From assembly GCA_951406725.2 (NCBI GenBank), contig OX597835.1, positions 26,288,001 to 26,352,000 of the forward strand: DNA of 64,000 bases, in the 5' to 3' direction. Position 1 is the first letter of the stretch, and the number at the start of each line of letters is the position of its first letter. Below, in pieces: positions 17,803 to 45,571 of this stretch. This DNA is from Octopus vulgaris. Its lineage: Eukaryota. The notes beneath the pieces are model-generated. The model was not told the DNA's origin, made no database searches, and worked only from the letters and a program-made list of their open reading frames with translations. The position numbers were made by a program, and so were the translations under genes.

Positions 17803-19664
17803 TTTTTTTTTTTTTTTTTTTTTTTATAGCGTGCTTTCACTTCACTACCGAGCGCAGCTCTGTGTGCCTTGGGTATGTGCTGTGATTTGTTGTGATGCTC
17901 TGATGGTTATTGTATGGAAAGTGTTCTGCGTAGGATGTATGCAGTGCCTAGTAGTGCAATTTTCTGTATGTTATATGTGTTTGCAAGTCCTGGTGTTTTT
18001 GTTATGTATTTGTCTGAATATTTTTTTATCATGCCTAATGCACCTACTATGATAGGAATTGTTTCTGTTTTCAGATTCCACATTCTAGTTACCTCTATTT
18101 CCAGGTCTTTGTATTTTGAGAGTTTCTCCATTTCTTTTAGAGACACGTCATCTGCCGGTATTGATACATCAATTAGAAAGCATTTTTTTTCTTCATGATC
18201 TCTGACAACTATATCTGGTCTGTTGGCCTTAATTTCTCTATCTGTGTGTATCGGCATATCCCAGAGTATGGTTGCTTTCTGTTTTCTGTGACCTTTTCTG
18301 GTGTGTGCCTATACCATCTTTTTTCTGTTGTTATTCCATAATGTTGGCATAGCTTCCAATGTATGTAGGTTCCAACTCTGTCATGTCTGTGAATATATTC
18401 CTTCTTAGCCAGGACTGGGCAGCTAGAGATAATATGATTTATTGTTTCTTGTCCATCTCCACATATTCTGCAGTTACTTGTAATATTTCTTTTCATTACA
18501 TGTTTTTGGTAATTTCTGGTGGGGAGGCTTTGGTCTTGTGCTGCAATTAAAAATCCCTCTGTTTCTGCTTTGAGTCCTGAGCTTCTCAACCATTGCTGGG
18601 ATTTTTCTTTGTCTATTTCTTTTGCGTTTAGTTTAGTGCCAGTATTTACCATGAAGGGGCTTTTCTTGCCATCGTTTTATCATGGTTCGTTGCTGTTCTA
18701 TTTTTAGTTTGGATTTCATTTGTTTTATAGCTTTTGTTGTTTCTTCATCTTCTTCTTCTTCTTCTTCTTCTTCTTCTTCATGTTTATTAGGTGGTATGAT
18801 TTCTTGTTTGTATTTGTCAGCTTCCTTAAATACTGAGAACAGTTTTTTGTTTTGCTCGTGTTTTGCCGCTATCTGGATCAGTTTTCCTTCCTTCTGAAGT
18901 AGATATTTTTGCAGTCCTATGGTGGTTATTTTATAGTAGTTTTCCAGCTGTATAAGGCCTCTACCACCTTCTATACGTTGTATATATAGTCTTTCTATGT
19001 CAGATTTTGGGTGATGCATCCTAGATCCTGTCATTATTTTTCTTGTTTTCCTATCTATTTTGGTCAGTTCATTTCGTGTCCAGTTAAGGATATTGTAGCT
19101 GTAACTTATAACTGGGACAGCTAAAGTGTTGATACCTATTATCTTGTTTTTAGCATTGAGCTCTGTGTTTAGTATTGATCTAACTCGTCTATAATATTCT
19201 TTTTTTATTTTCTCTTTCATTTGTGTGTGTTGTGTCTTATCTAGTTCATGGATTCCTAAGTATTTGTAAGTTTGGCTTTGGTCTAATTCTTTTATTTCAT
19301 TGGTTTTATCTAGTGTGATGTTGTTACTCTTAACTAGTTTTCCTCTTTTCATGGTTACTTTGGCGCATTTTTCTAATCCAAATTTCATATCTATTTCTTT
19401 GGTAAATCCATGAACTGTCTTTAATAGTGTTTCCAGCTGTTTGTCATTTGCAGCGTATAGTTTTAGGTCATCCATATATAAAAGGTGGCTGATCGTTTTG
19501 CCGTAACATTTATATCCGCATCCAGTTCTATTTAGTATATCAGATAGAGGCGACAGTGCCAAGCAGAAAAGGAGTGGAGAGAGCGTGTCTCCCTGGAATA
19601 TTCCTCTTCTAATGGGGATGTCTTTGGTTTTCATGAGTCCCTCTTTTGTTTGGAGGTGTAGGAC

Positions 19665-19666
<2 letters not shown>
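17803..19666 (-). mobile_element. R4/Dong-type LINE, 5'-truncated, RT + CCHC + RLE, frameshifted; poly(A) tail; inserted in (TAA)n
   Basis: RGIFQGDTLSPLLF, YMDDLKLY, YKYLG, CRICGDGQETINHIISSC, RHDRV, NRPDIVV and FLIDVS across ORFs 18633-19811, 18209-18652 and 17907-18257. Poly-T at about 17803-17825 and (TTA)n on both flanks. Confidence 0.95.
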
Positions 19667-19749
<83 letters not shown>

Positions 19750-19924
19750 GTCATTGTTGTTGTTTTATTCAGTACTGACGTAATTGAAGATGCATTCGGC
19801 TCTGTTCGCAACCGAAAGTTTCACCTTGTATATAACAGTATGAAATTGCTTTACACCATTTATTCCTAGAAAGGAAGGCTTTAGAATAAGAAAGCTTACA
19901 CTTACCGAATTCGGATACATTCTT

Positions 19925-33651: not shown

Positions 33652-34754
33652 TACATATATACATATATAAATGCGTGTATGTGTGTATATACCTATATAT
33701 ATAAGTGCATACCATGCATTTATATATATATATATATATATACAAACAAACACAAGCACACACACGTATATACATATCTGTGTGCGCATAATCATACATG
33801 CATATATACAACTATTTCTTCCTCCCTCTCTCGCTCGCTCCATCCGTCCATACATTCCTCATCTATCCACCCATCCATCCATCCACCCATCCATCCATCC
33901 ATCCCTGCATCCATCCATCCATCCATCCATCCATCCATCCGTACATACATGAAAGTTAGTTGCACAGACAGCTCAGCTAAGCAACACAATATTCTACGCG
34001 ATACAATATTCTTTCTATGCGAGATATTTAGCAACAAAATTTGTTCCACGGCTAAACATGTAGTAAAATTACATTACGTCTGTGTGAAATTAGTTAACAA
34101 AACAAATGAACCTCAGATATATCTCACAGCATATATATTTACCTCGTAAGACATCTAGGGGTTTCGGACAAACCTCTTTGAAGAGAATTTTGGGATTGTG
34201 TGGGCAGAGTCGATTCAAGTGGGATCAATAGCCTTGCAAAATATCTAATGCACATCCGACAATCAGATTGGTTACATCTAGATCTCCCGAATATCTCAAC
34301 GTGGTCTGAGCCTACTTCCAGCGTCTCATAGAGGGCGTATAGGGCTAGAATTTTCTTTACATTGATGGATGGTAATGGCATCAGTTGACCTCGGCGTAAT
34401 TTGAAACTCAGAGAGCAGAGAAACTGGAAAAAATATCGATCTCTCTATAATTGACCATCCTGAGAATAAGTTGAAATCTGTCTACAAAAGACTGCAAGAG
34501 ATACTGCCTACACGTACACACATACATACATACACACACACATATATATATATATACATACATACATGCATACATACATACATACATACATACATACATA
34601 CATACATACATACAAATGTGTCTATGTAAGTAAGTATGATTTGCATATATTGTATATACATGTATATATATATATATATAATACTTATATAAATAAATAT
34701 ATATATATATGTATGTATGTATGTGTATGTATGTATGTATGTATGTATCTATCA

Positions 34755-34799
<45 letters not shown>

Positions 34800-34920
34800 A
34801 CAAGATAAGGGCAGAAGAAAAATTCTAATGCCATATACGCCGAAACAAAAAAATTGTCGATAACCATTAAATTTATTCGTCTCGAAATAAACCGATAGAA
34901 ATCTCTAAAAAATTCGTTAT

Positions 34921-34980
34921 TACCGTATTGGTCCAATTTCGGGGTTAATTCACAAGAAATTTTCCCCTCTTCAGCGGCAC
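34921..34980 (-). ncRNA. Type I hammerhead ribozyme (copy 1)
   Basis: GUGCCG-CUGAAGA-GGGG(19 nt)CCCC-GAAA-UUGGACCAA-UA/CGGUA. Canonical core, stem I UGCCG:CGGUA, stem II 4 G-C pairs, near-palindromic stem III AUUGG-A-CCAAU. Confidence 0.9.
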
Positions 34981-35385
34981 ATACGCGAGATATAAATGAA
35001 ATACTTATTCATACCCACGGAAGAAGCAAGCACCAAGTCCCGAGCAGACTTAAGTACCCCAAATATATCCAAATAGAAAAATCTTCGGCGCACCTCGAGA
35101 CACGTATGATTCGAACTAGAAACTTTCACAGAGTGATAGAATCCGGAAGTGAAACACTAATCTATTTATAATTGATATAGGATAAAATTGTTTTCGGGGA
35201 AAAAATTTTATCAATGGCCAGCATATCAAAAAATGCCTTTAAAGGTAAAATTTATACATAATTTACAAGATAAGGGCAGAAGAAAAATCCTAATGCCAGA
35301 TACGCCGAAACAAAAAAATTGTCGATAACCATTAAATTTATGCGTCTCGAAAAAAACCGATAGAAATCTCTAAAAAATTCGTTAT

Positions 35386-35445
35386 TACCGTATTGGTCCA
35401 ATTTCGGGGTTAATTCACAAGAAATTTTCCCCTCTTCAGCGGCAC
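35386..35445 (-). ncRNA. Type I hammerhead ribozyme (copy 2)
   Basis: Identical to 34921-34980, 465 nt away. Confidence 0.9.
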
Positions 35446-35470
35446 ATACTATATCAATTATATATATATC

Positions 35471-35508
<38 letters not shown>

Positions 35509-36046
35509 CTCTTTATGAAGAATAAGGTCTTACAAAAGAATGTACGGAGGTTCTATGTTTTAGCTGCTCAGTAGTCTTCTTTACTTGCTGTTGATATTTA
35601 TGGCATTTCTTTTTTGTATTTGGAAGGTGGAGCTTATTTGTCGAGTATGTCATTGTGTTGTTAACATAGAAAATTGTCTATTTCATGCTTGGATGTTCAC
35701 AAGAGGATGTGGCTGGTGTAAAAGCTTTTGGTCAGTATATTTCTCTCTAGACGTTCGCTAGTCTATAAACAATTTAATTATTATATACAAAATTTTAACC
35801 TTTGTTTCTTATGGACGTAAGACTTTCCGGCTATCTACTAATCAATAATTCTTCAAATTTGTTTCAAGTATAATTATGCTATGATATATTATTTTAAGAC
35901 TGTGGACATATGCCAAAGTGGAGCATTACAAATTAAGGACGGCCACACGTAGAGACACAGACACAAACAGACATACACGCATACATATATATACATACAT
36001 TGTATATATACTTATACATATATATATATGTGTATATATATATATG

Positions 36047-42582: not shown

Positions 42583-43845
42583 TACGAGGGACATTCAATA
42601 AGTAATGCACCTGACCCACTTGCAGAAATTTTGAAAGTGCAATTATTTATATCTCTATAGATTAAGTGGCAAATTACAGCTCTGAACTAATTGTGGTTTC
42701 TGATTTACAGGTGTTTTAACTGAGTCAAGTGTGAAATGGAGCCTGTTGAGTGTCGAGCAGTGATCCGGTTTTTGTATTTGAAAGGACGCACACCACGGGA
42801 GACTTTTGATGAAATGAAAGTAACTTATGGTGATGATGCCCCATCATATGACCTTGTTAAACGCTGGCATCGTGAATTCAAACATGGTCGGAACTCTGTG
42901 GAAATAGCTCCCAGATCTGGTCGCCCCCCCCCCCCCTTCTGCCATTGATGAGGCATCTGTCCGTCAAGTTGGGGCTGCCATTTTGGAAGATCGACGCATA
43001 ACTATTCGCCAAATAGCCCATGAGGTCAACATTAGTACCAGGTCTGTGGAAACTTTCATCCATGACCATTTGCATATGCAAAAGGTGTCTGCCAGATGGA
43101 TTCCCAGGTTGCTCACACCTTTCCAGAAGCAAGAACGCGTCGAGTGCTCGAGGATGAATTTGGAGACGTGTCAAGAAGATGAGTCAAAATCTTTGAAAAG
43201 ACTGATTACACAGGATGAAACCTGCGTCCATCGCGATGATCCAGAGACCAAAGCCCAGTCAATGCAGTGGAAGCACCGTGACTCACCTCCTCCAAAGAAG
43301 GCAAGGGTGCAGCTCTCCGCTGGCAAGGTCATGCTCACAGTCTTCTGGGACCAGGACGGAGTAGTGATGACAGATTTCCTGGCAAAGGGTACCACAATTA
43401 CAGGAGCCTATTATGCTTCACTTTTGAGGAAATTAAGAGAAGCTATCAAAATCAAGAGGTGGGGCAAGATCAGCAAAGGCATCCTCCTCCTGCAGGACAA
43501 CGCTCCGGTCCACAACTCTCTTGTCGCCAGATCAGAAGCACAGGCGTCCGGCTATGAACTCCTCCCCCATACCCCTACTCTCCTGACCTAGCACCCTCTG
43601 ATTTTCACCTCTTCCCAGCCATGAAGTTGTTTTTGAAAGGAAAGCGTTTCCCAGATGATGCAGCCTTGATTTCTGAAGTCACGTCGTGGTTGGAGGACCA
43701 AGCTGGGGTCTTCTACAAAAACGGTCTCCAGAGCTGTATTAAACGATGGGAGAAATGCGTAACTCTGGGTGGTTCCTATGTAGAAAAAGACTAATAACTG
43801 TGCCAAGTTTCGTTGCTCTACTGCTATGGGAAGTGGGTCGTGTCA
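42583..43845 (+). mobile_element. Mariner (Tc1/mariner, D,D34D) transposon, near full length, frameshifted transposase at 42736-43795
   Basis: Left TIR TA-cgagggacattcaataagtaatgcacctgacccact and partial right TIR agtgggtcg. Protein motifs: CRAVIRFLYLKG..RSGRP, WIPRLL, ITQDET, VFWD, LQDNAPVH, and a shifted YSPDLAPSDF. Confidence 0.95.
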
Positions 43846-45010: not shown

Positions 45011-45559
45011 AATGCAATGCGAAAGTATTGCTTTCCAGTAAAAGATAGCCCGTAAGGGTAAAATTATACATATAAAAGTAAATAAATGTTACAATCTGAA
45101 AAATGGAAAACCTAGAATCGGATAATGCAGTACCGCTTTCAGACTCTTCAAATACGTTTGACAACGTGGATTTGATTTGTCCTCATCAGCTGCATCTACC
45201 TGGACAAAATTTCATATGATGCCACATCTATGCCAGTACACTCGTCTGAACGCCAAAACGTTAACAGAACGATAACAGTGAAGAAGTTTCAATGAAAATA
45301 ATAATGCAATACGAAAGTATTGCTTTCCAGTAAAAGATAGCCCGTAAGGGTAAAATAATACATATAAAAGTAAATAAATGGTACAACGAGGCACGGATAT
45401 TTACTGCATTATCCGATTCTAGGTTTTCCATTTTCATGTTTGTTGCACACACGCGTCTTTACTAGTATATACGCAGTGAAGCTATACTATAGCGTCGTAT
45501 TTATTACGATTGCTATTTTCCAGTAAATATCGGTGCCTCGTTGTACCATTTATTTACTT
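45011..45559 (-). mobile_element. Hammerhead-bearing non-autonomous retroelement with partial tandem and 5' inversion
   Basis: Direct repeat 45011-45094 / 45303-45386. Inverted pairs 45097-45132 vs 45402-45436, and 45368-45406 vs 45521-45559 (38/39 identity). (TA)n flanks. Confidence 0.85.
45124..45196 (-). ncRNA. Type I hammerhead ribozyme
   Basis: GAUGCAG-CUGAUGA-GGAC(34 nt)GUCU-GAAA-GCGG-UA/CUGCAUU. 7-bp stem I, canonical core, minimal stem III one change away from the palindrome ACCGGU. Confidence 0.85.
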
Positions 45560-45571
45560 ATATATATATAT

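Follow-up and report, generated by a model that had tools for sequence, protein, structure and literature searches.

The window, a 64,000-nt stretch of the Octopus vulgaris genome (contig OX597835.1, positions 26,288,001 to 26,352,000, within assembly GCA_951406725.2 of 2.8 Gb in 227 contigs), contains a short non-coding insertion bounded by (TA)n tracts. The minus strand of this insertion carries two identical type I hammerhead ribozyme motifs, spaced 465 nt apart and lying inside 192-nt direct repeats. No coding frame of 120 aa or more is found within it when frames are taken from stop to stop. Its features are given below in window coordinates. Positions within the repeat unit are numbered from q1 (35449) to q465 (34985), with the ribozyme cut between q59 and q60.

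34793 to 35462, no single strand: whole insertion, flanked by (TA)n tracts and comprising a long minus-strand arm (1.41 units) and, from an opposite arm, a 14-nt tip
34793 to 35449, minus: main arm of 657 nt, made up of one 465-nt unit (35449-34985) and a 192-nt partial unit (a pseudo-LTR-like partial tandem), ending at the "short" 3' end site
35258 to 35449, minus: 5' direct repeat, 192 nt
34793 to 34984, minus: 3' direct repeat, 192 nt, with 4 differences from the 5' repeat
35386 to 35444, minus: type I hammerhead, copy 1, predicted cut between 35391 and 35390; the commonest type, 25 of 69 motif matches
34921 to 34979, minus: type I hammerhead, copy 2, predicted cut between 34926 and 34925
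34926 to 35390, minus: 465-nt cut-to-cut monomer, as a prediction only
35168 to 35257, minus: "tail", the 90 nt separating the short and long 3' end sites of the family
35180 to 35246, minus: tail motif common to other families, consisting of an ACCU/AGGU hairpin, AUGCUGGCCA and a GAUAA...UUAUC terminal hairpin; a candidate RT-binding site
35449 to 35462, plus: tip of the second (inverted) arm, which stops at the "long" 3' end site and is the reverse complement of 35167-35180; assigned from direct comparison and the family pattern
34750 to 34795, plus: left flank, TATCAATTTA(TA)18
35460 to 35507, plus: right flank, a (TA)n tract with one interruption

Both ribozyme copies read, along the minus strand, stem I 5' UGCCG, core CUGAAGA, stem II GGGG/CCCC, GAAA, stem III AUUGG-A-CCAAU, the triplet AUA and stem I 3' CGGUA, so that the core elements CUGANGA, GAAA and NUH and all three stems occur in hammerhead order. 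Comparison of 34793-34984 with 35258-35449 at an offset of 465 gives exactly 4 differences (34824/35289, 34834/35299, 34877/35342 and 34888/35353), none of them within the ribozyme, and an independent repeat search recovered the same direct-repeat pair with 4 differences and the same spacing. The original prediction, made from the letters alone, of a (TA)n-bounded non-coding insert with direct repeats of about 190 bp, identical canonical hammerheads and four repeat differences falling entirely outside the ribozyme is borne out by these comparisons, and the cuts that it placed between 35391 and 35390 and between 34926 and 34925 would, on the sequence, indeed release 465 nt. The unit is low in G+C (35%). 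The left flank at 34750-34795 and a similar run at about 35467-35507 form a possible long target-site duplication of 41-46 nt. As had also been noticed, 35449-35462 and 35167-35180 are exact reverse complements of each other; the suggestion that the former caps the 5' end proved wrong, and this piece is better read as the 3' tip of another arm, one primed in the opposite orientation.

The unit belongs to a dispersed family. A 22-nt ribozyme word spanning stem II, GAAA, stem III and the cut site has 361 exact matches in the genome and its reversed control has none, which argues that the motif did not arise by chance and that the unit is not single-copy, in keeping with the family that had been proposed. 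When the 670-nt insertion served as query, 2752 first-look candidates were obtained, and full-length matches among the 40 that were scored are 87-97% identical. A position-ordered sample, selected by the tail motif, consists of older subfamilies that match the unit at 68-90%. The description of the family as young therefore holds for the window copy, which is among the younger ones and has close relatives at 85-97%, and fails for the family as a whole, which is not simply young. The two repeats at this locus differ by 2.1%, against 4.1% (278/6725 sites) over 30 such arms, a divergence that places the window copy among the younger insertions. Under the octopus calibration quoted in PMC13282606 (a distance of 0.09 equals 25 million years), 2.1% would correspond to an age of about 3 million years, provided that the host and rate of that calibration apply. 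Contigs from two runs with other organism labels also match the element (X16, 418/1952, and X18, 187/948, at an identity of at least 99%), and contigs of runs X1 and X13, whose RNA origin is a guess and which have no bearing on expression or circles, cover parts of the unit. In the literature no description of the family was found; it may stand under another name in repeat libraries (Repbase, Dfam or the library of PMC13282606) or in the supplements of PMC7229834 or of a 2026 preprint discussed below. The word "ribozyme" has no occurrence in the available text of PMC13282606, the Octopus vulgaris repeat paper.

The anatomy of the insertions is the most telling property of the family. Arms were mapped in 60 loci, from which 7 repeats of the same insertion were dropped to leave 53 insertions. 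Most aligned pieces (86 of 101) end at one of two positions 90 nt apart, q192 ("short") or q282 ("long"), and these defined ends mostly run into (TA)n. Opposite arms are adjacent and fused 5'-to-5' in 40 of the 53 insertions, a count whose BLAST threshold lies above the 14-nt inverted arm of the window copy. Where both ends of an arm pair are defined (n=29), 28 pairs combine one long and one short end, one is short+short and none is long+long, which departs from an even split with p 5.6e-8. L017 and L019 seem to be a single insertion in duplicate, and counting them once gives 27 of 28. A further 11 pairs have an end elsewhere. The window copy fits the pattern, its main arm ending short and its 14-nt inverted piece ending long. 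Arms are unequal, with scattered 5' truncation points and fixed 3' ends; they extend up to 2.6 units, the longest measuring 1141 and 1220 nt, and no long arrays occur among the 53 insertions. Nor do these include any convincing target-site duplication of unique sequence, the 4 weak candidates all being simple sequence.

Judged from sequence, this arrangement of arms is the tail and inversion signature of Penelope-like elements (PLEs). Insertions of PLEs are described as partial tandems together with an inverted and 5'-truncated copy, with the tail confined to one end and microsatellites as targets (PMC8557442), and two internal reverse transcriptase (RT) start sites have been reported for a PLE whose insertion involves cutting and extension of both target strands and whose protein is predicted to be a dimer (PMC11167929). 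The strict pairing of one short with one long arm may be new, as may the sharing of a tail element by several families. This tail motif has 2801 exact matches in one form and 2905 in another, and it is common to families whose units are otherwise unalignable, here called B, C and D. An alignment of 9 tails retains the ACCU/AGGU hairpin (broken in D), AUGCUGGCCA and the terminal GAUAA/UUAUC hairpin. The motif is a candidate RT-binding element. Family B has a non-coding tandem unit of about 450-480 nt with the same tail motif and the same two 3' ends, together with its own hammerhead-like motif, in which an additional A separates stem II from GAAA and stem III is palindromic. The loci of these families are as follows.

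L107-L109, L114, L121, L122, L124, L126-L128, L133-L162, L170-L176, L181 and L182: family B
L163, L164, L167 and L168: families C and D, likewise short, two-armed and bearing the tail motif, known from their ends

The element is probably a non-autonomous PLE of the animal non-LTR retrozyme kind, mobilised by PLE proteins. The original prediction had proposed a non-coding family of retrozyme type mobilised by a Penelope-like RT, and the copy number, the two fixed 3' ends, the pairing of arms and the read-through of the cut site described below all speak for it, as do, at the level of sequence, the (TA)n targets and the covariation of the ribozyme fold. Non-LTR retrozymes with circular RNAs have been described in coral, mussel and axolotl (Cervera and de la Pena 2020, PMC7229834), and the octopus family resembles them in its non-coding, low-G+C tandem unit with one type I hammerhead each, its dispersed copies and its co-occurring autonomous PLEs. 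The 465-nt unit lies above the 150-450 bp of that account; its copies mostly have fewer than two units per arm, in contrast to the long arrays of those retrozymes, and its circles are predicted. The available text of PMC7229834 does not describe insertions made of two arms with a pair of fixed 3' ends in (TA)n, and the words "octopus" and "cephalopod" have no occurrence in its main text.

A July 2026 preprint by Li, Clavereau and Pollet (10.64898/2026.07.22.740005), whose unit range of 51-972 bp includes the present length, concludes that animal retrozymes derive, as non-autonomous elements, from PLEs. Its data are mainly vertebrate (31 vertebrates, 3 insects, 1 coral and no mollusc) and its evidence consists of co-occurrence and pLTR homology; as far as its available text goes, it leaves the mechanism of mobilisation to be elucidated and did not look for the PLE link in non-vertebrates. 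Eight of nine Xenopus retrozyme dimers failed to cleave in vitro in that study. The octopus family leads to the same conclusion on origin and mobilisation, and its two consecutive complete hammerheads correspond to the core of the definition of an active element given there, whereas the evidence here is insertion structure, with no pLTR homology to a partner found among 42 GIY-YIG loci.

Structural parallels are also found among EN+ PLEs such as Neptune, Poseidon and Naiad (PMC8557442, PMC11167929, PMC4209133). As in the octopus family, their copies form partial tandems and carry at the 5' end an inverted copy that is itself 5'-truncated; only one end bears a tail, RT starts at two sites, the targets are AT-rich or (TA)n, and stem III is a palindrome that lends itself to dimers. 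Unlike them, the element described here has no ORF, its tail is 90 nt long rather than 30-40 nt, and its ribozyme is canonical rather than minimal. Non-autonomous PLEs of Chlamys such as MRC1 (PMC8557442) are likewise short non-coding passengers that form pLTRs and head-to-tail copies; as described in the available text they are without canonical hammerheads and share 3' sequence with their own autonomous family, whereas no such partner appears in the 42 GIY-YIG loci. Both the retrozyme class and its link to PLEs are thus already published, which makes the discovery a modest one, and it is the family itself for which no description was found. Mobilisation of animal non-LTR retrozymes has the standing of a proposal, and the octopus family bears the PLE insertion signature in nearly pure form.

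A plausible cycle, in which cleavage, its dependence on dimers, the circle and the identity of the RT are all presumptive, would begin with read-through transcription of a two-ribozyme locus, giving an RNA with its two palindromic stems III paired. Cutting at both sites would release the 465-nt monomer, which a host ligase would probably close into a circle, to judge from the mussel, coral and axolotl retrozymes. A PLE protein acting in trans would then bind the conserved tail region and nick both strands of a (TA)n target, and each strand would prime a cDNA, one starting at the short site and the other at the long site, which lies 90 nt downstream. These cDNAs would run back through the ribozyme, for up to 2.6 units, and would finally be joined 5'-to-5'. 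Taken whole, this amounts to insertion of retrozyme circles by a PLE protein dimer seated on one conserved RNA element, priming two strands at two flanking sites, strictly one each, and rolling through the ligated ribozyme; we offer it tentatively. The tail element would on these terms be a portable "carry me" signal, and the copies would be direct genomic footprints of PLE transposition from a circular template. In this genome the tail element is common to at least three families whose units cannot otherwise be aligned. The family points to a defined RNA element of 70-90 nt and two start sites, which should render mobilisation testable with purified PLE protein, like that of the anole element.

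The nature of the template can be approached through the 5' extents of the arms. Among 36 arms with a defined 3' end, which were not selected for length, 25 reach the cut site and 24 of those pass it; the pile-up of 5' ends at this site that would mark a linear cut template is absent (1 of 25 arms). This read-through argues that the template was not the bare cut monomer, leaving a ligated circle or uncut RNA. Non-majority bases are shared between repeats within one arm at 82 of 6725 sites (1.2%), between opposite arms at 35 of 5786 (0.6%) and between insertions at 0.19%, and some shared variants are confined to a single insertion (several each in L004, L009 and L027). Sharing within arms points to repeated reading of one monomer, as would occur on a circle; jumping between templates, gene conversion or a local duplication could equally give this result. 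Recurrent differences between 5' and 3' repeats, the mark of a linear dimer master, never exceed 4 of 30 arms, and many of them lie in T-runs or CpG. A ligated circle is somewhat more probable than not as the template. Reads across the junction, once proposed as a test for circles, were rejected for this purpose, since the joined sequence is the genomic ribozyme itself and looks the same as the genomic sequence across the cut site.

A serious contender, held at somewhat less than an even chance, keeps the same PLE mobilisation and dispenses with the circle: the template would be linear RNA transcribed from partial-tandem loci and left uncut, or the RT would jump between linear monomers, and the ribozyme would only trim read-through transcripts or be a retained part of a PLE. 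A precedent is the anole PLE, for which uncut RNA is the main template in vitro, ribozyme mutants still insert with insertion unchanged and RNA-seq contains no reads that terminate at the cut site (PMC11167929), so that read-through does not require a circle. The limit of 2.6 units per arm, the lack of long arrays and the weakness of the monomeric stem III agree with such a scheme. Against it stand the private variants found in both repeats of one insertion in L004, L009 and L027, which need a monomer to be read twice and would not come from uncut dimers of an aged locus (though template jumping or gene conversion could produce them), and the mussel retrozymes of similar size, which are mostly circular (PMC7229834).

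Whichever RNA serves as template, mobilisation in trans calls for a PLE protein, and intact Neptune-like PLEs with RT and GIY-YIG domains, ending in (TA)n, are present in the same genome. The partner search scored 150 of 6136 GIY-YIG candidates, and all examined elements are of one type with a C-terminal endonuclease. Among the 42 GIY-YIG loci obtained from these, in no PLE family does the unit or the tail motif form the element's own 3' end, and the 3' ends of the Neptune-like elements found carry other ribozyme variants and no tail motif. No PLE ORF leads into the tail motif at motif-selected loci (30 + 20) or at family B loci (30). Copies adjacent to PLEs in L091 and L093 (this family) and L096 (family B) were considered as a link to a partner and rejected, as they look like neighbours in shared (TA)n tracts.

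The same scope bears on a quite improbable alternative, in which there is no independent unit and every copy is just the 5'-truncated end (pseudo-LTR) of an ordinary autonomous PLE with an overlooked ORF. All the insertion marks are of PLE type, as this would require, and the protein search scored 150 of the 6136 candidates. That said, every long arm continues upstream of the ribozyme into the end of a further unit (q465 joining q1), for up to 1220 nt and never into coding sequence, and no PLE match leads into any locus tested.

Two further elements were seen at the PLE loci. A young Neptune-like family (L092-L096, L098 and L099) has RT and GIY-YIG in one 781-aa frame. Upstream, and overlapping it, lies a second frame of up to 479 aa for which Pfam gives no clear match. 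This family also has pLTRs, ends in (TA)n, a tail of 35 nt and a hammerhead-like motif of minimal form, the U3/A8 variant. At L069:454 (plus strand), together with an inverted copy, there is a two-armed element with a minimal hammerhead-like motif that adjoins a Neptune-like PLE end.

The ribozyme itself escaped the Rfam check that had been suggested for it: there was no hammerhead match in the whole window at gathering score, and a search of 34700-35550 at E<=10 returned 12 matches with no hammerhead family among them. The family hence supplies a canonical hammerhead that Rfam misses. Motif searching gave 69 hammerhead matches in all loci collected by then, 25 of them of the same type as the window copy. 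A covariation alignment was built from 16 of the 69, the window copy and 15 from loci L091 onward that span subfamilies, the rows being selected by a motif that fixes the core. Over 13 pairs (the innermost stem III pair was left out) and 195 cells, pairing is kept in 96.4%, against 91.0% in shuffles (0/500 as high) and 31-48% when slid. Two-sided changes occur in 4 of the 13 pairs, one in stem I, two in stem II and one in stem III; three of these four set one subfamily apart, so they represent few independent events. Within the limits of so few events, stems I, II and III appear to have been maintained through compensatory change across subfamilies.

Conservation of the core was counted separately on BLAST alignments whose rows were not selected by motif. 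Differences from the majority amount to 16/1029 (1.6%) in the core and 2.9% in the stems, against 875/29641 (3.0%, or 2.6% without CpG) outside the ribozyme. The extra conservation of the core that had been expected across copies is therefore present, as a mild effect of the kind to be expected where most copies decay neutrally. That the family is a DNA repeat of satellite or MITE-like type, dispersed through recombination or by a transposase and bearing a chance hammerhead-like motif, is very improbable: many copies do resemble inverted repeats and Rfam gives no hammerhead match, whereas the unequal arms, scattered 5' truncations and fixed 3' ends, and stems I, II and III that still pair via two-sided changes, all count against it.

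Predicted folding energies bear on how a PLE-mobilised retrozyme of this kind would cleave. Stem III has +1.8 kcal/mol within one copy, where 4 bp close a GAC loop, and -8.9 kcal/mol as a duplex. The original prediction that stem III should pair better between the two copies agrees with these values; the 1-nt loop on which it was premised is not obligatory, as the weak alternative of 4 bp and a GAC loop is available. For the 670-nt RNA, a double hammerhead folds at -160.1 kcal/mol, two single ones at -157.2 and the free minimum at -163.3, and the free-minimum fold also pairs both stems III. In a lone ribozyme the active fold is not that of lowest energy, and the stem III pair probability is about 0.05. 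Cleavage through a dimer of ribozymes is favoured by these models, and metazoan hammerheads with a palindromic helix III are known to cleave as dimers (PMC4209133). Folded as a circle, the 465-nt monomer has -110.9 kcal/mol, with a z of -2.6 against 60 shuffles.

The window holds other repeats as well. At 45160-45200 on the minus strand lies an unrelated hammerhead-like motif of minimal PLE type, with CUGAUGA, a long stem II, GAAA, almost no stem III and a 7-bp stem I; it sits in a small element at about 45050-45570, made of direct and inverted pieces ending at (TA)n, which has a 78% relative in L018. Translations judged by eye indicate, at 17907-19820 (minus strand), a disrupted non-LTR retrotransposon whose frames resemble an RT and a C-terminal nuclease and, at 42908-43591 (plus strand), a Mariner-like transposase fragment. 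Outside the window, a repeat ending in a hairpin and CTAG, presumably Helitron-like, abuts family copies in TA tracts at L056:2500-2540 and at a loose end in run X1.
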